From the sequence record MT701590.1: a stretch of DNA of 64,000 nt; one strand, written 5' to 3'. The DNA comes from Klebsiella phage Miami. Positions 693 to 64,000 of this stretch are shown piece after piece (position 1 is the first letter of the stretch; each line of letters starts with the position of its first letter). The notes beneath the pieces are model-generated. The model had not been told where the DNA came from. It ran no database searches and saw only the letters and a program-made list of their open reading frames with translations. The position numbers were made by a program, and so were the translations under genes.

Positions 693-3600
693 ATGACCAC
701 GCCAACCGATAAAGATATACCGAGTAACTCGGTACAAGATAGACTGTATAACGCCGAGAAATTTGATGAGTTTATGAACTCGGATAATGTCAATTACACT
801 GACCGTAAAGGAAAAAGCAGATGGACATTATCGGGTATTAGACAAGCCGTCCAAAATTGGATGGATACTCTGAAAACCAGTTCAGGGGCTTCAGCTATCG
901 GCTACGGTACGAGCACAGTCGCCGATGAAATCGCTAAGACGGTCAAGCAGCAGATCACTTTCTCAACCGGCGGCACACTGAATACACCGTTAGATCGTAT
1001 AAGTGACGGAACGTATTTGTATTACTGGACCGGTGTATTCCCGAAACAAATCCCGGCGAATTCAACAATTGATTCAACCGGCGGCATGGGAGTTGGTGCG
1101 TGGGCCGCGGATACCGATTCATTATTGAGAAAAAAATTATCAGATGAGGGCGGTTCTCAGCTTATTTTCGGGTTAGGAAACATAATCGGGACAGTCGTCG
1201 AGATCCTGAATTCCACAGAATCCCCCCAGATATATCAGGCAAATGGGTTTTATGCGCAGAATGACGGCGGCGAAGGCGTTTGGGTAGCGACGGGGAATAC
1301 CTCTCCTGAATTATCAGGTAAACACGTGCCATCAAGCGCGGCGGTATACAACGCAAATGGCGTCGAATATCAACTGAAAGTACAATCTGGATTTGAATTA
1401 TCAGCAAAAGCTAACGGATCTAAGCCAGTCAGCAATGTCGATGCTCAAACCGAAGATTTCGTATGTCTTGGTGAAGTAGTGAACGGTATCACGTCGCGTG
1501 TCAAAACTATGAGCAATGACGACGATTTTTGGACGTACCTAAAAGTCACCATACCGTCCGAGACCCCATTACGTATCGGGAAAAGCAGTATCAAGGCTTA
1601 TTCGCGCTTGACGTTAGATTTTCAGCAGGCTTCAATTTACGTCAGGCCGAGCCCGTCAAAACGCCAGGAAGTCACCGGCGTTTATATGAACGCCATCGAG
1701 CGCGGTATTGAAGATATCAAGGCGATATCCGCAAAGTATGCCGGTAAGACGTCTTACTTTAATATGACCGTTTCGAATTTTCACATCATCGGTGGGAAGT
1801 TCTTCGGCGACCATAACACTGATAAGGGGGTTGCGAATTGCAGTACCGGCACTGGATTGCTCACTTACAATTTAGAAGAGTCCAGCGTCACTAATACGTG
1901 GTTCCAGGGATTTGCTTGTGGGCGTCAATACGTCCGCACCGTGTCCGGTTATTATTTCGATAACCTTGGGCGCAAAATAACGGGCACGCTGGTTCCAGAA
2001 GTTGCTTCTTCAGCCACTGGTTCTTATGAGGGCGTTAAGGAATGGTCCGTCACGGCTTATGGCTGCCGTTACATGTACCTGAGAACTGTCAGTAACTGGG
2101 CGAGATTCGAGAACTGCAAATTCGGTACCTACGCTGACTGGGGGTCAAGCCCTGATGGCAACCAGTGCGAATACTTCATTGAGAACCGAGGAGCCGGTGT
2201 AGTATTCAGTGGCGGTGTGATTGAAGCCAATACCTCGGCCGCCAACCCAACAAAAGGCTTTGTGAGGGACTTCGCCCGCGGGTGTACGTTCACAGGTATC
2301 TACTACGAGAACTGCCTGTCGGCTGGGTGGGTCATCACCACTCCTGAAAAGAGCCAGTACAACCGAGCTAATGGACTGTTCCTTACAGCTATTGGGAGTC
2401 AGTATACTGGATCGTCGAAGGGCGCCCCCCTGGTTAAATTTGAACCGGGATACTTTGGCTCATACGACGCTACTACGGGGCTGTATAAAACAGGTGGTTG
2501 GGAAACAAATTACCAGTATTCGGGTGGGGTTAACACCTGGTCTGTAGGTCAACCTGTTTTAGATTCCGGGGCTTTCCCTCACGGTGGGTATGACTTTAAA
2601 TATGGGACTTACGGGATCCATTATTCTGGAGCTGCGCCGGATGTAGACTCGCTTCGGGACACCCCTGAAGGTAATGAGTTTCTGTCTCAATATGGATTAC
2701 TGGTTAACTCCGGAGTTTTGTTATTCCCTGAATTATCCCCGGCATATCACTCTAACATCGTAGTTTGGTATAAAGACCTGACGGGTAACTTTGACCCAAG
2801 GGGTATTGTTGTTGGTGATTTCGACAATAACAACGTGTCTGATGGGACCAGCAATGCGCTCTACCGTACTAATGGGTTTAATTACTATGACTACGGTAAT
2901 GGGTATAAGGCGGCCATTGTGCCCTACGTTAACCCGCGCCCACTCGATAACAGGATGACAACGTCTGCCGGACGCAAGTTAAAAATTACTGTAACCAGTG
3001 ACGCTCCTATTATCCTGAAAAGCATTCAGGCGTTCGTAGGGGGGACTCCGATATTCCCGCCAGCCGTTAAGGAATATGTGCCTCGTTCACAACGAGACCG
3101 CATATGGGGTACTATGACTGGTGCCTCTACGAATTCTGGTGCGTATTACGGTCCACTGATTGGCGGCGGTATCTTCCGACCAGGTGATGTAGTGTTACCT
3201 TTTACGCCGTTCCAGAACCCCTTGTTGCTGGATCCGCTAACGTACACAGATATTTCCGGGACCTTTGGCTCGAGCGCAGAAATCGTTACTATTACCGGTG
3301 GTGCGACCTGGGGAGCTGGATTATCCGGTAAAACCATCGCCCTTACAGTAGTAGACCAAGACGCAACCCATGGCTGGACAACCGTCTCGGTACCGTCTGA
3401 CAGTTTGGCATACATCTTAACCGGGATGCCGGTTAACATAACGGCAAACTCCTCCGGGGGGGGTACAGGGTTTATAAATATTGTACGCAGGATTATTAAT
3501 TCCGATGGGACTCTGAGCAATAATTACGTGTTGTCCGGTACCCTTGGGGCCCCTGGTACGACCCTAACAGCGTCAACAAACGGGAGTTATACATTGCGCT

Positions 3601-4334
3601 CTGGGGTGTCTTCGACGCTTTCTGGTGTTTCTGGTTCGTTCAGTTCTGGATCGTGGTTAGGTTCGTCATCTGGAGATTTGCGCGTAGGGTATGGGGCTTC
3701 ATCTTCTAGTACGCGTCAAATACGTTACTACTACAACGGCACGGATGTGTCCGCCGGGATAGGGTCTAATGGTCTTACCTCCTTGTACTTAACAGGTACA
3801 GGCGGGATCACCCTCAATGGGTCTTTACTAACAAGTACAAGCTACTCATTTGGTAGTGCGTCGGCATACCCAGCGAACATCTACTCTCAAAACGCCGTAA
3901 CAGTAGTCTCTGACGAGAACTACAAAACCGACATAGTAGAGTTAGAAGATGCTGAGATTGAGTGCGCTAAAGCCTGCGCCAAGTTGTATCGCCGCTATAA
4001 GTTGAAAACAGCCGTAGCTTTAAAAGGTGAAGATGGGGCCAGATACCATGTGGGTACCATTGCTCAACTTGTTATGCAGGCTTTCACTGACGCTGGTCTG
4101 GACTGGACGAAGTACGGGATCATTACTTATGAGTCTTGGGAAGATTCCGATGCAGTTTTTGAAACTGTGGGTGCTACCTATGATGAAGAAGGTAATGAGT
4201 TAACTCCTGAAACTACTGTAGAAGTTACTCCTGCTAAAAAGGCCGGGGAAATCTACATGGTTCGCTACGACGAATTTAATAGTTTCGTTATGGCTGGACT
4301 AGAAGCGCGGATTCAAGACCTAGAGATTAAGTGA
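693..4334 (+). CDS. long tail fiber / tailspike protein with C-terminal intramolecular chaperone (peptidase S74-like) domain
   Basis: 1213 aa. N-terminus MTTPTDKDIPSNS..DRLYNAEKFDEF..YTDRKGKSR is homologous to the N-terminus of the minus-strand ORF 6753..9323. The C-terminal ~150 aa (DIVELEDAEIECAKACAKLYRRYKLK..GEDGARYHVG..TYESWED) matches the autoproteolytic chaperone domain of T5 pb1-type L-shaped fibers and endosialidases. Confidence 0.85.
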   Translation: MTTPTDKDIPSNSVQDRLYNAEKFDEFMNSDNVNYTDRKGKSRWTLSGIRQAVQNWMDTLKTSSGASAIGYGTSTVADEIAKTVKQQITFSTGGTLNTPLDRISDGTYLYYWTGVFPKQIPANSTIDSTGGMGVGAWAADTDSLLRKKLSDEGGSQLIFGLGNIIGTVVEILNSTESPQIYQANGFYAQNDGGEGVWVATGNTSPELSGKHVPSSAAVYNANGVEYQLKVQSGFELSAKANGSKPVSNVDAQTEDFVCLGEVVNGITSRVKTMSNDDDFWTYLKVTIPSETPLRIGKSSIKAYSRLTLDFQQASIYVRPSPSKRQEVTGVYMNAIERGIEDIKAISAKYAGKTSYFNMTVSNFHIIGGKFFGDHNTDKGVANCSTGTGLLTYNLEESSVTNTWFQGFACGRQYVRTVSGYYFDNLGRKITGTLVPEVASSATGSYEGVKEWSVTAYGCRYMYLRTVSNWARFENCKFGTYADWGSSPDGNQCEYFIENRGAGVVFSGGVIEANTSAANPTKGFVRDFARGCTFTGIYYENCLSAGWVITTPEKSQYNRANGLFLTAIGSQYTGSSKGAPLVKFEPGYFGSYDATTGLYKTGGWETNYQYSGGVNTWSVGQPVLDSGAFPHGGYDFKYGTYGIHYSGAAPDVDSLRDTPEGNEFLSQYGLLVNSGVLLFPELSPAYHSNIVVWYKDLTGNFDPRGIVVGDFDNNNVSDGTSNALYRTNGFNYYDYGNGYKAAIVPYVNPRPLDNRMTTSAGRKLKITVTSDAPIILKSIQAFVGGTPIFPPAVKEYVPRSQRDRIWGTMTGASTNSGAYYGPLIGGGIFRPGDVVLPFTPFQNPLLLDPLTYTDISGTFGSSAEIVTITGGATWGAGLSGKTIALTVVDQDATHGWTTVSVPSDSLAYILTGMPVNITANSSGGGTGFINIVRRIINSDGTLSNNYVLSGTLGAPGTTLTASTNGSYTLRSGVSSTLSGVSGSFSSGSWLGSSSGDLRVGYGASSSSTRQIRYYYNGTDVSAGIGSNGLTSLYLTGTGGITLNGSLLTSTSYSFGSASAYPANIYSQNAVTVVSDENYKTDIVELEDAEIECAKACAKLYRRYKLKTAVALKGEDGARYHVGTIAQLVMQAFTDAGLDWTKYGIITYESWEDSDAVFETVGATYDEEGNELTPETTVEVTPAKKAGEIYMVRYDEFNSFVMAGLEARIQDLEIK

Positions 4335-4443
4335 TTAATAACTCACAATTGATGTGGGGACCGGTGACGAGTGATAGAATCTGTAAGAGGTGACATCGTT
4401 ACAGATTTTTTGTTACCGCACCGGTCGATGTTATGAAAGGATC

Positions 4444-5247
4444 ATGGTTTTATCACACACAGCAGGTACTTATATGCATAATCGTAGTGTTAAGCGTGCT
4501 AACCGCGACGCTCGTCGCGAAGCAAGACGTCAAGATAAGTCCCAAAGTAGTCAACTGAAACTGGTGGACAACAATTTCAGTGAAGTAAACCTACCTCTTG
4601 CAAAAGCTGATCGGAGTAAGATTGAGCCGAAAACCCCAATGCAACAAAAATATTGGGATGGGTTACACGCCCACGATGTCGTCATCGGTATTGGTGAAGC
4701 GGGTAGCGGTAAAACGTTCCTCCCGACTTGTTACGCTGCAGAACGTCTGCTGGCTAAAGACGTGGAAAAGATTATCGTTACACGACCAGTCCTACAGGCC
4801 GATGAAGATCTGGGTTTTCTCCCCGGGGATGTTAATGAGAAATTCGCACCTTACTTCCGACCGGTCTACGATATCTTACTGAAGCGCCTGGGTGGTGGAA
4901 TGCTTAACTATTGCATGAAGCCTGGCGTGGAGAAAGTTGAAGTCGCCCCCTTTGCTTTTATGAGAGGTCGTACTTTTTCTGACTCAGTAGTGATTCTTGA
5001 CGAAGCGCAAAACGTTACAGTTATGCAGATGAAAATGTTCATCACTCGTATGGGTGAGAACACTACGGTAATCATCAACGGCGACCTTACCCAGTGCGAT
5101 CTTCCTAAAGGAGTTAAATCCGGTCTGGAAGATCTGCTGGAACGCATTGAACGAGATCCTGAAAATGGATTCCCGATTTATCGTTTCAATGCGGCTGATA
5201 GTGTGCGGTCAGAGATTTGTTCCAAAGCCCTGAAACTTTATAAGTAA
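4444..5247 (+). CDS. phoH: PhoH-like ATPase
   Basis: Walker A GEAGSGKTF, then LGFLPGD and PYFRPVYD motifs typical of PhoH. Start taken at the ATG with AAAGGA Shine-Dalgarno (MVLSHT...) rather than the upstream GTG of the ORF track. Confidence 0.85.
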   Translation: MVLSHTAGTYMHNRSVKRANRDARREARRQDKSQSSQLKLVDNNFSEVNLPLAKADRSKIEPKTPMQQKYWDGLHAHDVVIGIGEAGSGKTFLPTCYAAERLLAKDVEKIIVTRPVLQADEDLGFLPGDVNEKFAPYFRPVYDILLKRLGGGMLNYCMKPGVEKVEVAPFAFMRGRTFSDSVVILDEAQNVTVMQMKMFITRMGENTTVIINGDLTQCDLPKGVKSGLEDLLERIERDPENGFPIYRFNAADSVRSEICSKALKLYK

Positions 5248-5255
5248 GTTCTAAT

Positions 5256-5292
5256 AACTCCTACTCCCGATAAGGGAGTAGGAGTTATTTTA
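5256..5292 (+). terminator. rho-independent terminator, copy 1 of a repeated 29-nt hairpin (aactcctactccc-gataa-gggagtaggagtt) plus U-tract
   Basis: Perfect 13-bp stem and 5-nt loop followed by ATTTT. The identical hairpin recurs at 19055 and 40476. Confidence 0.8.
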
Positions 5293-6752: not shown

Positions 6753-9323
6753 TTAACTTACATAAATGGAAGTTAACGATAGCTGGGAGAATATCCCTGA
6801 AATGTACGCCTGAACACCTCGCGTCCCTACGGTGTAGCGATCAATAAAACTATTCATTTGGGTCGAACTAGTTCCTGAATAGTCAGTCCCTGAAACCGAC
6901 ACGGAGGTTGTTCCCGATAGAGTATTGACTGAACTGGTAATATTAGTGGCGATGGATCTCGCCAAAATACCACTTCCGGGATAGTCAATTTTAAAAACAT
7001 CAAAAAAGGTATTACCGGATTGCAAATGGGTGGCCTGCAGACAATTTCCTTTGGCCACATATAAAGCCCCGGACCAACTACTATTATTTACTCCGGTGTT
7101 CCAGATCATCAGAGAAGAAATTGGCGTACCTGAGTTATTATAATAGGAGCAGTCACTTAACCGGAACCATTGGGCTAAATTCAAATTAGATGATGTGACC
7201 GAACTTAACGAGTAGTCGCCGGAAAAACTTACCCCTGACGCTTTCAGTCTGTGAAGGAACGCCGAATCGGCGGTCGTTAAAGGCAAATTAGTCCCTGATT
7301 TGACACTCCCTCCCCTCATGTTAATTTCTACACGTTGATTGGCTTCCTGGGTGCCGTCGTTGGTAATGAACCTTGATAACTCACAGTCGTTGAAATTATA
7401 GGACCCCCTTTGTGAGATTCTCACTAGGGTGGGGGTGCCGTTGTAATTGGGGTTGTGTAATCTCCTAGCGTCGAGCCTAATATTGTGTTGAAATCCGTAA
7501 GATGGACGTTTGATAATTAAATTATCCACCCCTACGTTGTTCATACTGACTTTCATGTCGATAGGTTCGAACATAGTGTCGGTCGATGCAGAAGTATTGC
7601 TTGCCCTGGGCTTCGTGTTGGTGAAATCAATTTTTAACGTCCCGCCGGCGGCGTAGGTAACGTTGTCAAATCGAATATTCATAGGAGGGGTAACCGTTCT
7701 GTCGCGGTTTATCCAATAAATATTTTGAAGGCAACTAGAAGCTTCCGGAGTCTCAATAGTCAAGCCGTCAATATCTATTTTATTAAATAGCTCCCCAGCC
7801 ATCTGAGACCCAGTAGGTAAAGAAGTGTAATTATCGGCGGCTCCCTGTACAATGGACCCTTCTCCATTGGACGCTAAACTGTAATATTTCCAAAATCCTC
7901 TGACCCTGACGTTACGCATAATCAGCGTCCCATCGGTGATTCCTCCGGAAGTAGTCCTGGCCTGCACAAGTGAAGGGAAAAGAAATTTTCCGTAGTAAGG
8001 GTCTCCGGATCCCCTCCCCAGTTCGTATACTGTGTCAAGTATCTCGAGAGTTGAGTTTTTAGTACCTAAGAAAACAGCAGCTCCGTCACCAATCTTGCAG
8101 TTTACAAGTTTGTAATATCCGATGCTTGGGTTATGACTATCGAAGTTGTTGGCCGAGCAATTATCAAAAATGGTATCGGCTATCCAACCGGCCGCGGATA
8201 TCGACCCCCATCCGTAGCCAAACGCGTTTACGTTTCTTACGTATAACTTCGCCCCCCACCCATGGTGGAGTGTGTAAGATGCATAAATGGTCGTTTGATC
8301 CGAGGAAGAAAAGGAAGCGGTTGGGTGAGCGTCGTAGATGAAATCCACGTAGGTGTTGTAGTAATACTGAATGTCGATAACGTGACGTGATCCTATTTCC
8401 GTAATCGGTTTATTGAGTATTCTCCCCTCTTTTATGATCAAGTTGGACACATAAAAGAACTGGAAGAATATAGGTCTAGGTCCATAACGATAGTCGACGT
8501 CCGGCATAATAAATTCACTGAAACCAGCCTGGATAGGTAGCGCCGATATGCTAGTAATCGACGTCCCGTTGTAAGGGAAGACGTTATCCATTTTGCCGTT
8601 AGCGCTTATCCTGGTTACGTGAGCGAGTTTCTGAGTTTTTGCGCCAGCTTGGGTTTGTGTGCTATTATAAACATATAGGTCGTCTGAAAAATTCATAATG
8701 ACCATGCTGTCGTTTAAAGTCGTGTCCGATCCCAACGAATCTAAACAACCGTTTCCGCTTAAGAAGTCTGTGGAGGCATTAGCATTTAACTTAGTTACCA
8801 CGGAAGATCCGGAGGCATGGTTAACTAATCCGCTCGATTGAGAGATCCAGAAAGTCCCGGTAAAATCAGCCGCCGGAATAATTTTCATTCCCCCTAAATC
8901 GGTCTTCTTATTATCGATGATCCAGTTAAACTTGGCGTTACCGGAAATCAAGTACTCACCAGATTTTTGTTTTATAGGAATGCCCGTCAATGTCGACAAT
9001 TGAATAAGGGCTAAAAGTTTGTCGGTGACGTCAACATCCCCCGTGTTCTCTATACCAAACATGTCACAGGAAAGAAATGTTTGAAGGTTAGAGACTTTAC
9101 CTCCATAAGGAAGATTTATAATTGACGACCCGTCCCCTCCGGTTAAAACATTCAGGGTTTCCTGGACGGCCGCCGCTACCCCCTTAGCGGTCAATCTCTG
9201 GTTACCAAAACGATCAGTATAGGTATTCTCATCGGAATTAATGATCTCATCTAACTTTTCGGCATTAAATCTAACATCTATAGCGGTGCTACTGGGTATA
9301 CCATTTTGTGTTGGAGTCGTCAT
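6753..9323 (-). CDS. tailspike / tail fiber paralog (probable beta-helical polysaccharide depolymerase-type receptor-binding protein)
   Basis: 856 aa. The N-terminal ~60 aa (MTTPTQNGIPSS..DVRFNAEKLDEI..YTDRFGNQR) are clearly homologous to the N-terminus of 693..4334, and the rest is unrelated. Asn/Gly/Ser-rich with patterns like right-handed beta-helix tailspikes. Confidence 0.75.
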   Translation of the reverse strand: MTTPTQNGIPSSTAIDVRFNAEKLDEIINSDENTYTDRFGNQRLTAKGVAAAVQETLNVLTGGDGSSIINLPYGGKVSNLQTFLSCDMFGIENTGDVDVTDKLLALIQLSTLTGIPIKQKSGEYLISGNAKFNWIIDNKKTDLGGMKIIPAADFTGTFWISQSSGLVNHASGSSVVTKLNANASTDFLSGNGCLDSLGSDTTLNDSMVIMNFSDDLYVYNSTQTQAGAKTQKLAHVTRISANGKMDNVFPYNGTSITSISALPIQAGFSEFIMPDVDYRYGPRPIFFQFFYVSNLIIKEGRILNKPITEIGSRHVIDIQYYYNTYVDFIYDAHPTASFSSSDQTTIYASYTLHHGWGAKLYVRNVNAFGYGWGSISAAGWIADTIFDNCSANNFDSHNPSIGYYKLVNCKIGDGAAVFLGTKNSTLEILDTVYELGRGSGDPYYGKFLFPSLVQARTTSGGITDGTLIMRNVRVRGFWKYYSLASNGEGSIVQGAADNYTSLPTGSQMAGELFNKIDIDGLTIETPEASSCLQNIYWINRDRTVTPPMNIRFDNVTYAAGGTLKIDFTNTKPRASNTSASTDTMFEPIDMKVSMNNVGVDNLIIKRPSYGFQHNIRLDARRLHNPNYNGTPTLVRISQRGSYNFNDCELSRFITNDGTQEANQRVEINMRGGSVKSGTNLPLTTADSAFLHRLKASGVSFSGDYSLSSVTSSNLNLAQWFRLSDCSYYNNSGTPISSLMIWNTGVNNSSWSGALYVAKGNCLQATHLQSGNTFFDVFKIDYPGSGILARSIATNITSSVNTLSGTTSVSVSGTDYSGTSSTQMNSFIDRYTVGTRGVQAYISGIFSQLSLTSIYVS

Positions 9324-19054: not shown

Positions 19055-19089
19055 TATACTCCTACTCCCGATAAGGGAGTAGGAGTATA
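19055..19089 (+). terminator. terminator hairpin, copy 2 of the repeated 29-nt element
   Basis: tatactcctactccc-gataa-gggagtaggagtata. The core is identical to the copies at 5256 and 40476. Confidence 0.7.
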
Positions 19090-24506: not shown

Positions 24507-24998
24507 ATGAAAAAGATCATGATCGCTATTGCTCTTCTGTCTACCACAGCATTCGCCAACGCCGCTTCTGAGCAGGTATGGAACGCGTCTCTCACCAACA
24601 GCCAAATCACCTGCGGCATCGACTACACCGGCGGCACCCAGGTTGAAGGCGGTATTCTTACCGCTAACGAAAGCGGGACGAATACATCCAAAGCGATTTC
24701 CTTCACCCTGATCGCGAACACGCAAAACGTCAACTGGCAGATCACCGAAGCCAAACTGGTTCAAAACACCGGCCGGTTTGATTTCAGCGATAACCTGCTG
24801 AGTGTAAACGATAAGACCAAAACGTCGGTCTACATCAACGATCAGGAATACGCGTGGCCTGACGCCGCTCAAGCTAAAGCGTTGGCCAGCAATTCTCGCG
24901 TGATCAAACTGGCGCCGAAAATCAATCTGGAACAGTCGGTCTTCCCGATTGGCCAAACAAGGATCGCTGGGAAAATTGTGATTACGTGCACGCAGTAA
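24507..24998 (+). CDS. secreted fimbrial-subunit-like protein (163 aa)
   Basis: Signal peptide MKKIMIAIALLSTTAFANA. Ser/Thr/Asn-rich beta protein with two Cys. Markedly higher GC and host-like high-expression codons. Confidence 0.45.
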   Translation: MKKIMIAIALLSTTAFANAASEQVWNASLTNSQITCGIDYTGGTQVEGGILTANESGTNTSKAISFTLIANTQNVNWQITEAKLVQNTGRFDFSDNLLSVNDKTKTSVYINDQEYAWPDAAQAKALASNSRVIKLAPKINLEQSVFPIGQTRIAGKIVITCTQ

Positions 24999-25013
24999 AT
25001 TAGGTTTACTTAT

Positions 25014-25049
25014 TTTAACCTACCGACCGGTTGGTCGGTAGGTTAAAAA
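25014..25049 (+). terminator. terminator-like palindrome aacctaccgacc..ggtcggtaggtt
   Basis: 12-bp stem directly after the stop codon. Confidence 0.55.
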
Positions 25050-25069
25050 CTTTTAAGTAAGGATATGAA

Positions 25070-26089
25070 ATGGGGCGGCTACCAACGAAATCTAAACATG
25101 AAATATACCTTGAAAGAGTTAAATTAAAACATAATAATTTTTATGATTACTCTAAAACTATCTTTACCGGGTCTCTGAACACAGTAAAAATAATTTGTCC
25201 TATTCACGGTGAATTCGAACAACGAGCATCCAAACATTTAGAGGGGTGTGGGTGTAAACAATGTGGAACCGACCGACAGCGAAAGGCTCTAAATAAAACA
25301 ACGGAAGATTTCATTAAAGAAGCCAAGGCAATTCACGGAGAAACATACGACTACTCACAAACGGTTTACTCAAATGGCCACTTCCCGGTAAAAATAATTT
25401 GCAGAACTCACGGTGTATTCTATCAGACGCCCTCCAATCACATTGGAGCGCATAAACATGGGTGTCAAAAATGTGTCTATGATAGCTTACGACTCGGATC
25501 TAAAATATTCATTGATCGGGCGAAAGAAGTGCATGGCGATAGGTACGATTATTCTAAAGTCGTTTACAATAAAAACTCTGAAGAGGTCGTCATCGTTTGT
25601 AAAGAACATGGGGAGTTCAAACAAACACCAAATACCCACACTGTCGACAAATCAGGGTGTCCCAGCTGTTCCAAAAAATTCACCAGAATGGTTCCGCTAA
25701 CGGTTTACTTTATAGTAAGCGAGGACCTTAAATTCATCAAGATAGGTGTTACACGATCTTTAGTAGGTAGATTAAAAACTCTCTTCTCTGCACGCCACAC
25801 CAAATTAATAGGATTCAATTCTTTCTTTTACACTAGAAAGTTTTATTCTGATGGTTACGAGGCTGGAGAAGCGGAGCGTAGTTTCAAAAATATGTTTTCA
25901 GAGTATAACGCCGGTTTCCTTATTGAAGGCTACTCTGGATCAACAGAATGGTTCAAGCTTAACCAAATAATTCTTAACTGGATAAAGGAGAATATAGACG
26001 ATCAACTCGATTTAACAGCACCGCCCTCTAACGCACGGTTAGGTTTAGACTCGATTCCTGGACAACCCGCATCCAAGGCAAGATTGTGA
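25070..26089 (+). CDS. T5orf172 (GIY-YIG-like) domain protein with three N-terminal Cys/His zinc-binding repeats
   Basis: Three ~50-aa repeats of ..HGxxYDYSxxxYxxxxxxVxIICxxHGxFxQxxxxHxxxxGCxxC. C-terminus YFIVSEDLKFIKIGVT...GSTEWFKL matches the T5orf172 signature (..GxxEWF). AT-rich gene. Confidence 0.55.
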   Translation: MGRLPTKSKHEIYLERVKLKHNNFYDYSKTIFTGSLNTVKIICPIHGEFEQRASKHLEGCGCKQCGTDRQRKALNKTTEDFIKEAKAIHGETYDYSQTVYSNGHFPVKIICRTHGVFYQTPSNHIGAHKHGCQKCVYDSLRLGSKIFIDRAKEVHGDRYDYSKVVYNKNSEEVVIVCKEHGEFKQTPNTHTVDKSGCPSCSKKFTRMVPLTVYFIVSEDLKFIKIGVTRSLVGRLKTLFSARHTKLIGFNSFFYTRKFYSDGYEAGEAERSFKNMFSEYNAGFLIEGYSGSTEWFKLNQIILNWIKENIDDQLDLTAPPSNARLGLDSIPGQPASKARL

Positions 26090-30690: not shown

Positions 30691-30723
30691 ATACTCCTAC
30701 GGCGATTAAGCCGTAGGAGTATA
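30691..30723 (+). terminator. terminator hairpin atactcctacggc-gattaa-gccgtaggagtat
   Basis: 13-bp perfect stem after the stop codon. Confidence 0.6.
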
Positions 30724-32319: not shown

Positions 32320-32345
32320 ATAGACCTAGTTATAACTAGGTCTAT
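32320..32345 (+). terminator. terminator-like palindrome atagacctagttataactaggtctat
   Basis: Perfect inverted repeat after the stop codon. Confidence 0.5.
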
Positions 32346-40475: not shown

Positions 40476-40506
40476 AACTCCTACTCCCGATAAGGGAGTA
40501 GGAGTT
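40476..40506 (+). terminator. terminator hairpin, copy 3 of the repeated 29-nt element
   Basis: aactcctactccc-gataa-gggagtaggagtt then TATTA. Confidence 0.7.
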
Positions 40507-40582: not shown

Positions 40583-40885
40583 GTGAACATCTATTTAGTT
40601 AAACCAATGGAATTTACTGGCGACGAAGATATCAACGGTATGGTCGTTGTAGCACCTGACACCAACACCGCCTTGCTGACCCACCCTCATATCGACGCAG
40701 ACGGCAATACCTTCGAATGGGAAGTCGAAACCAATTCTGAAGCCGGTAACTGGGTGGATGATGAGGGCCGAACTGACATCTTCCACGGTTGCGCTTGGCC
40801 GGCTCCTGATCGTTTACACTGTGTTCTGTTGGGCGTAGCCGCCGACGGGATGGAAGAAGGTATCGTGTTGGTCGATCGTGATTAA
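40583..40885 (+). CDS. hypothetical protein (100 aa), GTG start
   Basis: Leader aaccataatctttttaggagcatgtaacGTG. The 20-mer is shared with the GroEL leader. Confidence 0.5.
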   Translation: MNIYLVKPMEFTGDEDINGMVVVAPDTNTALLTHPHIDADGNTFEWEVETNSEAGNWVDDEGRTDIFHGCAWPAPDRLHCVLLGVAADGMEEGIVLVDRD

Positions 40886-51346: not shown

Positions 51347-52570
51347 ATGTTCGAATATCTCATTCAGATAAATCAGGTTCTCTCTTCTGTTCCTATTATC
51401 GGTGGGAGTTTAGCGGTAGCCTTAGGCGGCGGGATCATTGCCGCCTTCTGGAAAGGTCCAGCGTTACTCTCGAGGATTTTTAACTCCACTGTTGTGGTTT
51501 CCTTCACTCTTAATAACTCAGGGTGGGGCAATAATACCAAGCACTACATTGCGTTTATTAAATGGTTTAACCGTTCAGATATTCTTAAGATAACGCGATC
51601 TACTGGTTACGAGGCCGTTTACGACAGCTCTGGTAAAGGGCCTAGTGTCGGCAGTCATTTATTTCGATTTAAGAATAAATGGTACTATCTCAAAATCAAA
51701 GAACTCCCTTCTACGGGAAGCGAGCGTGAGAAGAAAGAGATATGTATAAAGACGTTAGGGTGTTCTGTCAGCATTTTCGACGATCTCTTCGAGGCCTTTA
51801 AGGATAAGACAGATGACGACGGAGAACTCAAAGTAAAACGGTTCAGGGACAATCACTGGTACGACGCCTGTCTTCTCAGCAGGAGGTCGTGGGATACCGT
51901 CATCTTAAACAAAGAAAAGAAGGTGGAAATAGTCGAACTCATCGAAGAGTTTTACGCGTCGAGGGAGTGGTACCGAGAAAGAGGAATACCGTATAAACTC
52001 GTTATTGTATTGTACGGCCCGGCTGGGACGGGTAAGAGTACCGTTATCAAAGCGTTAGCACGCCTGTTTAACAAAAACCTTAACCTCATTTATCTTCACC
52101 AAATGACGGATAACACCTTCCCGGCCAGCATAGAGACGGTAGAGCAAGATTCTTTTATTGCCATAGAGGATTTTGATACGGTTTCTTCTATAGGGTCGAG
52201 GACCAAACCTAAGGAGGAGAAAGATCCGTTCCAAATAGACCTTTCAGACGGAGGATTAAACCTGACCACTGTTTTAAATACATTGGATGGGATCGCTGAA
52301 TTGAACGGTCAGGTCATCTTTATGTCCACCAATCATCTTGAAAAGATCGATAGTGCGCTGATTCGAACCGGTAGGGTAGATGCAAAAATCCATATCGGGT
52401 TTTTAGGTAAAGAAGAGGTCGGAGACTTCATTCAGATGATGTATCCCGGAACGGAAGCTGATTTGGATTTTGTTACAGAAATCTCTGGGTCGGATCTTCA
52501 GTCGTATGCGTTAGCCAACAAAAGAAATTCGGAAGGTTTCTTAAAAGAGCTTAAGGACCATTTTAAATAA
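51347..52570 (+). CDS. membrane-anchored BCS1-like AAA+ ATPase
   Basis: N-terminal TM helix (VPIIGGSLAVALGGGIIAAFW). Walker A VLYGPAGTGKST, Walker B FIAIEDFD, then GLNLTTVLNTLDGIA and RTGRVD as in BCS1-type AAA proteins. Confidence 0.65.
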   Translation: MFEYLIQINQVLSSVPIIGGSLAVALGGGIIAAFWKGPALLSRIFNSTVVVSFTLNNSGWGNNTKHYIAFIKWFNRSDILKITRSTGYEAVYDSSGKGPSVGSHLFRFKNKWYYLKIKELPSTGSEREKKEICIKTLGCSVSIFDDLFEAFKDKTDDDGELKVKRFRDNHWYDACLLSRRSWDTVILNKEKKVEIVELIEEFYASREWYRERGIPYKLVIVLYGPAGTGKSTVIKALARLFNKNLNLIYLHQMTDNTFPASIETVEQDSFIAIEDFDTVSSIGSRTKPKEEKDPFQIDLSDGGLNLTTVLNTLDGIAELNGQVIFMSTNHLEKIDSALIRTGRVDAKIHIGFLGKEEVGDFIQMMYPGTEADLDFVTEISGSDLQSYALANKRNSEGFLKELKDHFK

Positions 52571-61454: not shown

Positions 61455-62012
61455 ATGACCATTATCGTAGGGGTTGTAAAAGAAAAATCGTTAAGTGCGG
61501 ACCGTTATATACTGGATTATAAGCAGATCAACAAAACAGTGTCTTCGGTTTCACGCTACACCGAGAGTAAATTAAAAATATCTCCGGACAATCATTTTTG
61601 TTATGTCTTCTGTGGCGAACAAAAAGAAGAGATTGTTCCATTGGTTCTTAACTATTTACTCAGATTCGAAAAAGGTCTGGTAAAGGAAGACGAATTTATT
61701 CATTGCGGACTTAAATCCTGCGACTCCCTCATTGTGATGTCCGCGAGACATTTTTATTCAATTCAGTTAAATGAAAAACAGGGGGTTTTAGAAGTTCAAA
61801 TTCGTTTGGATGGCGCGGTCACCTATCCTTTTTTAAACAACCATATGGTCGCCGGACTCGATCTCCCAGGGGAAGTAATTCGTCAAGCACTGATGGAAGC
61901 CAATCTCATTCTCCACACCGATGAAAATGAAGTTGATGTAGTCCATCAAAAAGACCTCACTCTTATTAAGAAAGCCACCAAAAAGGAAATTAAAAATGCT
62001 CTTTTATCTTAA
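61455..62012 (+). CDS. hypothetical protein (185 aa)
   Basis: Conserved leader ttttaggataaaacATG. Confidence 0.5.
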   Translation: MTIIVGVVKEKSLSADRYILDYKQINKTVSSVSRYTESKLKISPDNHFCYVFCGEQKEEIVPLVLNYLLRFEKGLVKEDEFIHCGLKSCDSLIVMSARHFYSIQLNEKQGVLEVQIRLDGAVTYPFLNNHMVAGLDLPGEVIRQALMEANLILHTDENEVDVVHQKDLTLIKKATKKEIKNALLS

Positions 62013-62454
62013 CAAGCGGGTTATCGTTGACAGCGTAGCGAACATCTTTATGTTAGCGGACGATACTCCTCACGTCGAGTTCTTATTGGATGGCGACAAA
62101 CGATGGGCTTTCATTCCCTATCATGAAAATAACGGCAGTACGTTATCTGCGGCTATCTCAGTGAATGAGCACGGTGTTTGTTATAATGCGCATTTCAACT
62201 ATAAAACGTTAAGTCTCGATCGTCGTATTCCGTTACCCTCTAATTTGTTAAAAGCCTTTCAAACAGGGGGAGATTCCGACTACTGTAACAACATGCACGT
62301 CGCTAAGGCCGCTTTCTATCACTATAACTGTACCTTTGACGAATTCCAAGCATTGCTAAATAAATCAGGCCGGGAGTACAAAATGTTTGATTTATTAGCG
62401 GTCTCTAAAAGACTTAAGACGATGCAGCCGGAACAATTTAACTGGGTTATTTAA
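61996..62454 (+). CDS. hypothetical protein (152 aa)
   Basis: Overlapping start. Confidence 0.45.
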   Translation: MLFYLNKRVIVDSVANIFMLADDTPHVEFLLDGDKRWAFIPYHENNGSTLSAAISVNEHGVCYNAHFNYKTLSLDRRIPLPSNLLKAFQTGGDSDYCNNMHVAKAAFYHYNCTFDEFQALLNKSGREYKMFDLLAVSKRLKTMQPEQFNWVI

Positions 62455-62544
62455 AACCAAGATTCCTATTATACGTTAAAGAATTTTGGATCTATATCAC
62501 CGTCTTGATGCACTAACCATAATCTTTTTAGGAGTATTAACATC

Positions 62545-64000
62545 GTGAACGTTCGTGGCGTAAAAGTAAAAGCAGAAACCCGTCAAATTATTGATAACAC
62601 CGTAGAGCTCGTTGCAACCGCGGTAACCTCGACCATGGGCCCTAACGGCAAGCTGGTTGTTATTGACGAAACGGGTAATCCTAAAATGACCAAGGATGGG
62701 GTGACAGTAGCGCGCTCTATCCGTTTGGATGATCGGGCAATGGACATCATCGCCAAGATGATCACCGAAGCCTCGATCAAAACGGATGCCGAATGTGGCG
62801 ATGGGACCACCACCACTGTATTCTTAACAAGAGCGTTTTATAACGCCTTTAAAGATAAACTGGATTTCATGACCAAACGCCGGGTGGAAGAGTTAACCAA
62901 AGAAACGATCGAAATGCTCAAAGGAATGACGAAGGTTATTTCTCTTGATAGCCCAGTCCTTCACAATCTGGCGTTAACAACCAGTAATAACGATCTGGAT
63001 ATCGTGGATAAACTCTACGATATCTTTAAGACCATACCTGATCCCATGATTGATTATCGTCGGGGTGTAACAGGTATTGACGAGATCGAATACAGTAAGG
63101 GCAAGGAATTCACAGGCGGGTACGCGCACCCTACTTTCACTAAAGATGGAAGTGGTAGCCCGATTACGATCGAATCGGGTTATGCGTGCATCTTTGAAGG
63201 GAAGTTCAGTATTCCAGATGACGAGTCGGAATTCCTGAAGCTCTTCGATGAGATCACTGAAAGGGGATATCGTCAGACTGTTGTTATCGCACGTGAATTC
63301 GACGAACACACCCTGATGGTGATGAACAAAATGAATCACGTTATGCTGACGCAGAAACTGGTGGAGGAACCGGTTTTCATTCCCGTGCGGGTTCAGGCTA
63401 TCGGAACAGCGGGAGTGGGGATCATTGGAGATATTGCAACGGTACTGGGATTAAACCAGGATGTGGACTATTCAGGTTGGAAGTCTCGCAACTATGAAGT
63501 ACGCCCCATTGAAAACGTTGTAGTGAAAGGCGCGCTATTCTTTGTGGGTAGCATGTCCGATGATGTCTCGGAACGTACAGTAAAGCGTATCGCGCAAATT
63601 AAAGATCAAATCGATAACTTGCCAGCTGCTCAGAAACACACGCCTTTGGCGAAGATCCTGAGACACCGTATCTCTACTCTGATGGGTAACCGAGTGACTG
63701 TAACCGTTGGAGGAGAAACCGCTTCCGACATCAAAGAACGACTGGATCGATTTGAAGACGTCGGTCGGGCTATCGCATCAGCGTTAACTAACGGCGTCCT
63801 TCCGGGCATTGGTTATTCATTGGCTTATGTTGGTAGTGAGCTGGTGAAGAAATATCCTGACGATTCTATAGTGAAACTGTACGCCGATGTATTGGGCGAG
63901 CAGCTTCACATGTTGATGGGTCGGGAATTCAATGATCCTGAATTAGTCTATGTCAATCTGGCTACTGGGGAAACCGGTAAGCATCCTCAAGACATCAACG
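62545..64000 (+). CDS. groL: GroEL-like (group I) chaperonin, N-terminal ~485 aa (3' end beyond window)
   Basis: GTG start after the conserved leader. KAETRQIIDNTVELVATAVTSTMGPNGKLVVIDETGNPKMTKDGVTVARSIRLDD...AECGDGTTTTVFLTRAF aligns with GroEL residues ~5-95 (..LGPKGRNVVLD..PTITKDGVSVAREIELED..AGDGTTTATVLAQA). The frame is open to nt 64000. Confidence 0.8.
   Translation, partial: MNVRGVKVKAETRQIIDNTVELVATAVTSTMGPNGKLVVIDETGNPKMTKDGVTVARSIRLDDRAMDIIAKMITEASIKTDAECGDGTTTTVFLTRAFYNAFKDKLDFMTKRRVEELTKETIEMLKGMTKVISLDSPVLHNLALTTSNNDLDIVDKLYDIFKTIPDPMIDYRRGVTGIDEIEYSKGKEFTGGYAHPTFTKDGSGSPITIESGYACIFEGKFSIPDDESEFLKLFDEITERGYRQTVVIAREFDEHTLMVMNKMNHVMLTQKLVEEPVFIPVRVQAIGTAGVGIIGDIATVLGLNQDVDYSGWKSRNYEVRPIENVVVKGALFFVGSMSDDVSERTVKRIAQIKDQIDNLPAAQKHTPLAKILRHRISTLMGNRVTVTVGGETASDIKERLDRFEDVGRAIASALTNGVLPGIGYSLAYVGSELVKKYPDDSIVKLYADVLGEQLHMLMGREFNDPELVYVNLATGETGKHPQDIN

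Follow-up and report, generated by a model that had tools for sequence, protein, structure and literature searches.

A viral-type GroEL-like chaperonin gene with a mosaic apical domain in a phiKZ-like Klebsiella jumbo phage

The 64,000-nucleotide stretch of Klebsiella phage Miami (sequence record MT701590.1; the whole stretch is hereafter the window) ends within a long gene for which an initial annotation, made from the letters alone, proposed a phage-encoded GroEL-like chaperonin, and the locus raises the question of whether such a gene still encodes a working folding machine and whether that machine depends on a GroES-type lid. The first chaperonin known from a phage was that of phage EL, and biochemical and structural studies exist for three phage chaperonins. 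The gene is very likely a functional viral-type GroEL-like chaperonin gene of a phiKZ-like jumbo phage, the product of which would, by homology, work without a lid. The gene is genuine and of a familiar kind, with a chaperonin annotation existing for Miami and for Klebsiella phage KPN8, and the mosaicism of its apical domain is a mildly new point and a small addition.

The product bears the chaperonin hallmarks MGPNGK, TKDGVTVA and GDGTTT, and the proposed identity was confirmed by PHROG 5725 ('chaperonin groEL'; E 4.1e-112, residues 6-484) and by the best relatives of solved structure, namely gp146 of phage EL (PDB 6tmt; 6.9e-66, 226 bits), the top sequence match in PDB, and the phage chaperonin 6hdd (1.1e-62, 215 bits, residues 9-483), which the search output gave without a phage name and which is taken here to be OBP gp246. 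In the same search, the cellular Hsp60/GroEL proteins, mitochondrial and bacterial, were matched at 1e-36 to 1e-29 with at most 127 bits, and the group II chaperonins at 1e-7. The general Pfam model Cpn60_TCP1 (PF00118; cut-off 34.3 bits) was passed by both the open reading frame (ORF) of the window (67.6 bits) and a full-length orthologue (68.9 bits), the alignment being confined to residues 23-151. The GroEL-type models scored ~150 bits, versus 40 bits for those of the thermosome/CCT type. However, the NCBIfam equivalog for GroEL, TIGR02348, was not reached (148.5 bits against a cut-off of 582.1), and every GroEL subfamily cut-off was also missed; with the same TIGR02348 model EL gp146 fails likewise at 158 bits, while E. 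coli GroEL, to which the identity is ~24%, scores 853 bits.

The predicted structure is in agreement with this placement. The AlphaFold model of a 99.6%-identical full-length orthologue (pLDDT 92.9, pTM 0.83) shows the three-domain Cpn60 fold, with equatorial, intermediate and apical domains, and its best Foldseek match was EL gp146 with ATP-BeFx (6tmt_A; TM 0.82, E 3.5e-39), followed by the GroEL/Hsp60 chains at ~1e-32, the matches covering ~540 columns at E 1e-29 to 3e-39. The phylogeny against phage and bacterial GroEL that had been proposed as a check was built by neighbour joining from the 120 best database hits, EL gp146 and named phage proteins among them, E. coli GroEL serving as outgroup, and in it the protein falls among these hits. 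The window protein, its orthologues and four relatives of 79, 60, 46-48 and 42% identity, drawn from sequencing-run assemblies (Logan) and NCBI, form a small clade, which is sister to the remaining 115 sequences, EL gp146 among them. Judged by its sequence, the protein is a member of the viral GroEL-like chaperonins (PHROG 5725; EL gp146, OBP gp246 and AR9 gp228). The accompanying statement that group I chaperonins occur in few phages, most of them jumbo, is outdated: a homologue is carried by 277 of 50,697 phage records, with genomes of 60-735 kb, and among the carriers are Flavobacterium podophages of 60 kb and phages of Cellulophaga (73-100 kb) and Vibrio (145-195 kb).

The residues of the nucleotide pocket are retained. 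In the alignment with E. coli GroEL, EL gp146 and the viral homologues, the following positions (E. coli numbering) are invariant: T30, G32, P33, K51, D52, G86-D87-G88-T89-T90-T91, D398, G414 and G416; D495, before which the window stops, is kept in the full-length orthologues. At the level of sequence, the site of ATP binding and hydrolysis is shown to be intact. Unlike canonical GroEL, the orthologues are devoid of C-terminal GGM repeats, and the allosteric salt bridges of GroEL, D83-K327 and R197-E386, are lost, the equivalent pairs being A/G and G/A, respectively; neither bridge is conserved in EL gp146 either (PMC7185714). Nine apical residues through which GroEL contacts GroES or clients (Y199, S201, Y203, F204, L234, L237, L259, V263 and V264) were compared in what is a divergent region of the alignment, with four identical, two conservatively replaced and three changed.

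The GroES-like partner, for which a search had been suggested in the initial annotation, was sought in several ways and was not found. Thus, phmmer with GroES and T4 gp31 as queries (the latter sequence possibly containing errors) against all ORFs from the six frames of KPN8 and the window, 3035 in number, gave nothing significant, the best E being 0.011 in a 590-aa ORF; when 138 small ORFs of KPN8 (65-165 aa) were scanned with Pfam, 32 families were hit, with no Cpn10 at E < 0.002; and Cpn10 is absent by Pfam among the neighbours of the chaperonin gene in three lineages, including the relatives of 79% and 42% identity. By tblastn with E. coli GroES, homologues were detected in 125 phage records, mostly of 320-390 kb giants (RaK2, CBB, 121Q), and among the 40 of these records that were sampled none came from the Miami/KPN8 group. 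That no GroES or gp31 partner was found fits the studied phage chaperonins, which are co-chaperonin-independent (PMC7185714, PMC9598537). An 85-aa ORF lies past the window end, 3' of the chaperonin gene (locus L001, 7621-7878), is 96-100% identical across the relatives and absent from that of 42% identity, has a low-complexity N-terminus and a hydrophobic C-terminus, and belongs to the stretch that is best conserved in this region (nucleotide identity with the P0002 contig, 97-98%); considered as a GroES partner, it was rejected for having no Pfam hit and no resemblance to GroES.

These data bear directly on the alternative that the gene encodes a classical group I chaperonin, a replacement or supplement for the host GroEL, which would pair with the host GroES or with an unrecognised phage lid and enclose its clients. 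The protein is indeed nearer to the GroEL than to the thermosome/CCT models, of the nine compared apical contacts four are identical and two conservatively replaced, and GroES homologues do occur in other giant phages; nevertheless, this alternative is regarded as unlikely in view of the distance to the equivalog cut-off, the absence of any detected Cpn10 or gp31 in the related genome KPN8, the missing GGM tail and the lost salt bridges, as well as the finding that EL gp146, the nearest of the homologues studied, shows no binding to E. coli GroES (PMC7185714).

The preferred explanation, a viral chaperonin acting without a lid, implies the following mechanism by homology to EL gp146, OBP gp246 and AR9 gp228. 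The protein would form heptameric rings, single or double, which would bind non-native phage proteins on the Met/Leu/Phe-rich apical surface and, by ATP-driven conformational cycling, would prevent their aggregation and assist their folding, with no need of a GroES-type lid and with the client not enclosed. The most likely clients would be abundant or aggregation-prone phage proteins, such as lysins or virion proteins made in the cytoplasm. Such properties have been described for the homologues: EL gp146 hydrolyses ATP and prevents aggregation, without GroES binding and without client enclosure (PMC7185714), and the chaperonins of OBP and AR9 are ATP-dependent single rings that need no co-chaperonin and act on endolysins (PMC9598537). 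Four points weigh against this explanation. The oligomeric state, the ATPase activity, the clients and the independence from host GroES rest on homologues that are just 31-34% identical; the classical apical contacts that are retained, Y199, F204, L234 and L259, are compatible with the use of host GroES; a very divergent lid, unlike GroES or gp31, would escape the searches used; and the last 40 codons of the chaperonin copy of this particular genome lie beyond the window.

The part of the protein that would meet the client is also the part that varies. Compared with the relative of 79% identity, the amino acid identity is 97% in the equatorial, 91% in the intermediate and 55% in the apical domain; against the P0002 contig, the nucleotide identity falls to 46-62% in the apical segment, versus 85-97% in the flanking genes and at both ends of the gene itself. 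When six near-identical phages are compared, 26 residues vary, and 21 of them are located within apical residues 185-383 (binomial p = 4e-5), and in the wider viral clade the apical identity is about half of the equatorial one. The apical helices of the model, ESEFLKLFDEITE and EHTLMVMNKMNHVMLT, are rich in Met, Leu and Phe. Positive selection on this domain was considered and ruled out, as synonymous divergence climbs together with the non-synonymous: versus KPN8, the apical dS is 0.215 against 0-0.06 elsewhere, with an apical dN/dS of ~0.2. The joint rise of dS and dN therefore indicates recombination with divergent alleles, and the apical domain behaves as an exchangeable module that recombination has swapped among related phages. 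A more far-reaching interpretation, which is offered tentatively and is rather doubtful, is that in the Miami/KPN8-type branch the apical domain is a recombining cassette on a near-invariant ATPase core that sets client specificity or evades a host factor, that is, a modular retargeting of the chaperonin; to our knowledge, this has not been described for GroEL-type machines. The combination of a near-invariant ATPase core with a mosaic apical domain provides a natural domain-swap set for the study of client choice in lid-less viral chaperonins.

The same combination could be taken to mean that the ring has been repurposed, for example into a factor dedicated to the assembly of a single component of the virion or the phage nucleus, with the apical cassette defining the partner, and a BCS1-like AAA+ ATPase encoded 10 kb upstream might be cited in its favour. 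This is improbable to a considerable degree, since in vitro the phage chaperonins studied to date serve a number of substrates that are unrelated to one another (PMC7185714, PMC9598537), and the apical dN/dS is a signal of recombination, not of positive selection.

The reading frame and its conservation speak for an intact gene. The GTG at 62545-62547 is the first start codon past the in-frame TGA at 62506-62508, and from it the frame is open for 485 codons, to base 63999, without a stop. In all five GenBank relatives (Stenotrophomonas phage BUCTxx100, Klebsiella phages KPN8, phiKp_32 and YC1, and Raoultella phage VB_ZK_P1) the orthologue is an intact 1578-nt gene of 525 aa with the same GTG start, which is also the exact protein length in the relative of 79% identity. 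Because the orthologue has 525 aa in the five relatives, the window misses 40 codons and the stop, fewer than the approximately 60 codons initially estimated. The C-termini of the orthologues read ...IIGSRAGGADIP. By the Nei-Gojobori method, dN/dS of the window copy is 0.05 versus BUCTxx100, 0.27 versus KPN8 and 0.15 versus the metagenomic relative of 79% identity; judging from these ratios, the gene is under purifying selection. In the relatives of 79% and 42% identity, too, the genes run thymidylate synthase ... chaperonin ... thymidine kinase ... SNF2-type helicase, and the gene is thus stably inherited.

A decaying or truncated remnant without function, the outcome that had been named as refuting the chaperonin, is thus very improbable, although the 3' end of this copy lies outside the window and the general Cpn60 model aligns only to an N-terminal portion. 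Against it stand the long open frame and the low dN/dS values, the full-length protein in the five GenBank relatives and in that of 79% identity, and the nucleotide-site residues, all of which are kept, together with PHROG and PDB alignments spanning the whole protein.

The phage to which the gene belongs can be determined from its relatives. The last 2 kb of the window are identical by 98.6% to BUCTxx100 (252 kb), by 96.4-96.6% to KPN8, phiKp_32 and YC1, and by 92.3% to VB_ZK_P1, and these five genomes are all of 251-257 kb, in support of the earlier suggestion of a large-genome phage. The window is collinear with KPN8 88359-147889, with mosaic gaps between. KPN8 carries the split multisubunit RNA polymerase beta/beta' genes as well as genes for a tubulin-like protein and for a virion-type lysin of 2268 aa, and a further product is a 'divergent family B DNA polymerase' (PF20286, 1.5e-258); because of the split RNA polymerase, the divergent polymerase and the tubulin-like gene, the Miami/KPN8/BUCTxx100 group is phiKZ-like, and the chaperonin is that of a Klebsiella jumbo phage of this group. 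Miami itself has been described as a 253-kb phage, distant kin of Erwinia phages RisingSun and Joad and of the Aphroditevirus Vibrio phages (PMC7844079), and was taken as a distant relative of Erwinia phage RAY in a study of chimallin-encoding, nucleus-forming phages (10.1101/2023.02.24.529968). BUCTxx100 (OR529409.1) is recorded as a phage of Stenotrophomonas maltophilia, and yet it has the above 98.6% identity over window positions 62000-64000, which match Klebsiella and Raoultella phages; its host label is open to question.

The orthologues in BUCTxx100, YC1, phiKp_32, KPN8 and VB_ZK_P1, compared by tblastn, have 95.5-99.6% amino acid identity to the window protein, from which they differ by 2 to ~20 residues, almost all of them apical; in length, GTG start, leader and neighbours they are as in the window. 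The database entry of Miami was compared by cluster membership only: 'chaperonin groEL' of Miami (YP_010667384.1) and the 'putative chaperonin large subunit' KPN8_190 (UVD41981.1) fall into the same 90%-identity protein cluster as the window protein. In the remaining four of the six named phage entries of this cluster (BUCTxx100, phiKp_32, YC1 and VB_ZK_P1) the orthologue is a 'hypothetical protein', an annotation that can be corrected to chaperonin. No description of the chaperonin gene was found in the literature on BUCTxx100, KPN8, phiKp_32 and YC1, and the Miami genome announcement does not mention it. That a host groL was recently captured by the phage, or that the window is bacterial DNA, can hardly be entertained: the one cluster member labelled Klebsiella quasipneumoniae (a 251,651-bp contig) is most likely phage DNA inside an isolate assembly, the identity to E. 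coli GroEL is far too low (see above), the clade mates come from phage genomes and contigs, many of ~210-280 kb, and even the relative of 42% identity retains the synteny with phage genes.

The start of the gene is conserved together with its leader, since the GTG and the 110 nt upstream are conserved in the five close relatives and largely so in that of 79% identity. The intergenic leader may hold a promoter; the scan for sigma-70 promoters and terminators around the chaperonin gene gave nothing above chance. As stated in the initial annotation, the GTG start makes use of a shared 20-mer: AACCATAATCTTTTTAGGAG is present twice without mismatch in the window (40555 and 62515), in both cases shortly before a GTG start, with 0.01 expected by chance, and no further copies are present in the window at up to three mismatches. 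The 24 nt directly before the start were also tried as the repeat, and the literal search returned only themselves, the repeat being the 20-mer slightly further upstream. The broader leader class, TAGGA-N3-6-A[CT]ATC-[AG]TG, has 10 matches on the plus strand and 0 on the minus strand; as this class precedes at least 10 plus-strand genes, the chaperonin gene uses the standard ribosome-binding leader of the phage. The coordinates are collected in Table 1.

Table 1. Coordinates of the chaperonin gene, its leader and domains, and of other genes named in the text (window numbering).
Feature	Position	Strand	Remark
Chaperonin coding sequence, truncated by the window end	62545..64000	+	codons 1-485 of 525
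Intergenic leader 5' of the chaperonin gene	62455..62544	+	near-invariant in five GenBank relatives
Exact 20-mer AACCATAATCTTTTTAGGAG, including the Shine-Dalgarno AGGAG	62515..62534	+	also in the leader of the gene that begins with GTG at 40583
Translation-initiation region TAGGAGTATTAACATC-GTG	62529..62547	+	leader class TAGGA-N3-6-A[CT]ATC-[AG]TG
Equatorial (ATPase) domain, N-terminal part, residues 1-127	62545..62925	+	limits mapped from E. coli GroEL by alignment
GDGTTT nucleotide-binding motif, residues 85-90 (E. coli 86-91, including D87)	62797..62814	+	invariant in 110 viral homologues and E. coli GroEL
Apical (client-binding) domain, residues 185-383	63097..63693	+	hypervariable, mosaic part of the gene
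Asp405 codon (catalytic Asp398 of E. coli GroEL)	63757..63759	+	invariant in both alignments
Tail-fibre gene, 1213 aa	693-4334	+	
Tail-fibre gene	6753-9323	-	
PhoH gene	4390-5247		just before the ~53-kb stretch

Several short motifs were noted around this and other genes of the window. The sequence CTATAT(T/C)AC is found on the plus strand at 32342, 53623, 59085 and 62492, at intergenic positions ~30-110 nt 5' of gene starts, the chaperonin included; for the shorter TATAT[CT]AC, 5 of the 5 window copies are intergenic, one of them 45 nt 5' of the chaperonin gene, and CTATATTAC precedes the chaperonin gene of the relative of 42% identity. A phiKZ-style early promoter is not claimed for CTATAT(T/C)AC, which has 8 occurrences in the KPN8 genome versus ~13 expected per strand. 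The strand-biased 8-mer TACGGTAA was likewise dismissed as a signal, with 11 of its 12 copies in predicted coding sequence, and is read as a Tyr-Gly codon pattern. The hairpin ACTCCTACTCCCGATAAGGGAGTAGGAGT exists in identical intergenic copies at 5256-5284, 19057-19085 and 40476-40504, with stem variants near 30692, 10042 and 44313, and its 7-mers are 11-15x enriched in intergenic DNA; the hairpin family probably represents transcription terminators or RNA-processing sites.

As to the rest of the window, the initial annotation had reported no structural or replication genes in 55 kb, which is contradicted by the two tail-fibre genes and holds for the ~53 kb between ~9.4 and 62.5 kb, where none was recognised. 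According to the KPN8 annotation and the scans made here, this stretch encodes proteins of nucleotide and cofactor metabolism (DHFR, thymidylate synthase, a MazG-like pyrophosphohydrolase, a nucleotidyltransferase and NadR/PnuC) and two kinds of nuclease, an RNase T-like exonuclease and an HNH endonuclease, in addition to a LysM protein, an HTH regulator and a BCS1-like AAA+ ATPase. The BCS1-like protein (407 aa, 51347-52570, plus strand; Pfam AAA 1.2e-11 and BCS1_N 3.7e-06; PHROG 7485), labelled 'putative chaperone protein' in KPN8, is possibly a second protein-remodelling machine 10 kb 5' of the chaperonin. The HNH endonuclease ORF (25070-26089, plus strand; PHROG 681, 7e-50) lies inside a stretch, 24948-26059, that is missing from the syntenic KPN8 position, and this 1.1-kb stretch is probably a mobile homing-endonuclease insertion; another HNH gene is situated between the chaperonin and thymidine kinase genes in BUCTxx100 and KPN8, and is absent in YC1 and the P0002 contig. 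Among the 138 small KPN8 ORFs (loci L003 and L007-L011), two match Tad2-like (anti-Thoeris, 6e-14) and one matches Acb1 (anti-CBASS, 6e-13), so the long block of small genes probably contains anti-defence genes. At its left end, the window genome differs from the relatives in the tail-fibre gene: the one on the plus strand has no megablast match at the syntenic place of KPN8, and its part 1347-4297 has ~80% nucleotide identity to tail-fibre genes found in the 159-kb FKP10 and in unrelated Klebsiella phages of 48 kb (VLCpiS13a/c, XY3 and GP-1). By these matches, it seems to be a receptor-binding or depolymerase module that was exchanged horizontally, and it points to a Klebsiella host.

In comparison with the known chaperonin systems, the window-type protein shares with E. 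coli GroEL the three-domain fold, GDGTTT and the residues D52, D87, D398 and D495, and differs from it in the absence of a GGM tail and of an adjacent groES and in the altered inter-ring and allosteric residues. The co-chaperonins T4 gp31 and RB49 CocO, which serve the host GroEL, likewise represent a phage investment in the chaperonin system (PMC9598537). Their strategy is the opposite one, a phage lid for a host ring; here, the ring is that of the phage, and no lid has been found. The AR9/PBS1-type chaperonins are distant, aligning over about half of the window protein at 22-23% identity. EL gp146 (PDB 6TMT-6TMX), at 32-34% identity, is the best match among the solved structures in both sequence and structure; it is longer (558 aa), with C-terminal equatorial insertions that the window protein is without, and the identity in the apical domain is 19%. 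The two proteins are nevertheless alike in the conserved nucleotide pocket, in having no GGM tail and no phage GroES, and in the loss of the GroEL salt bridges (PMC7185714).

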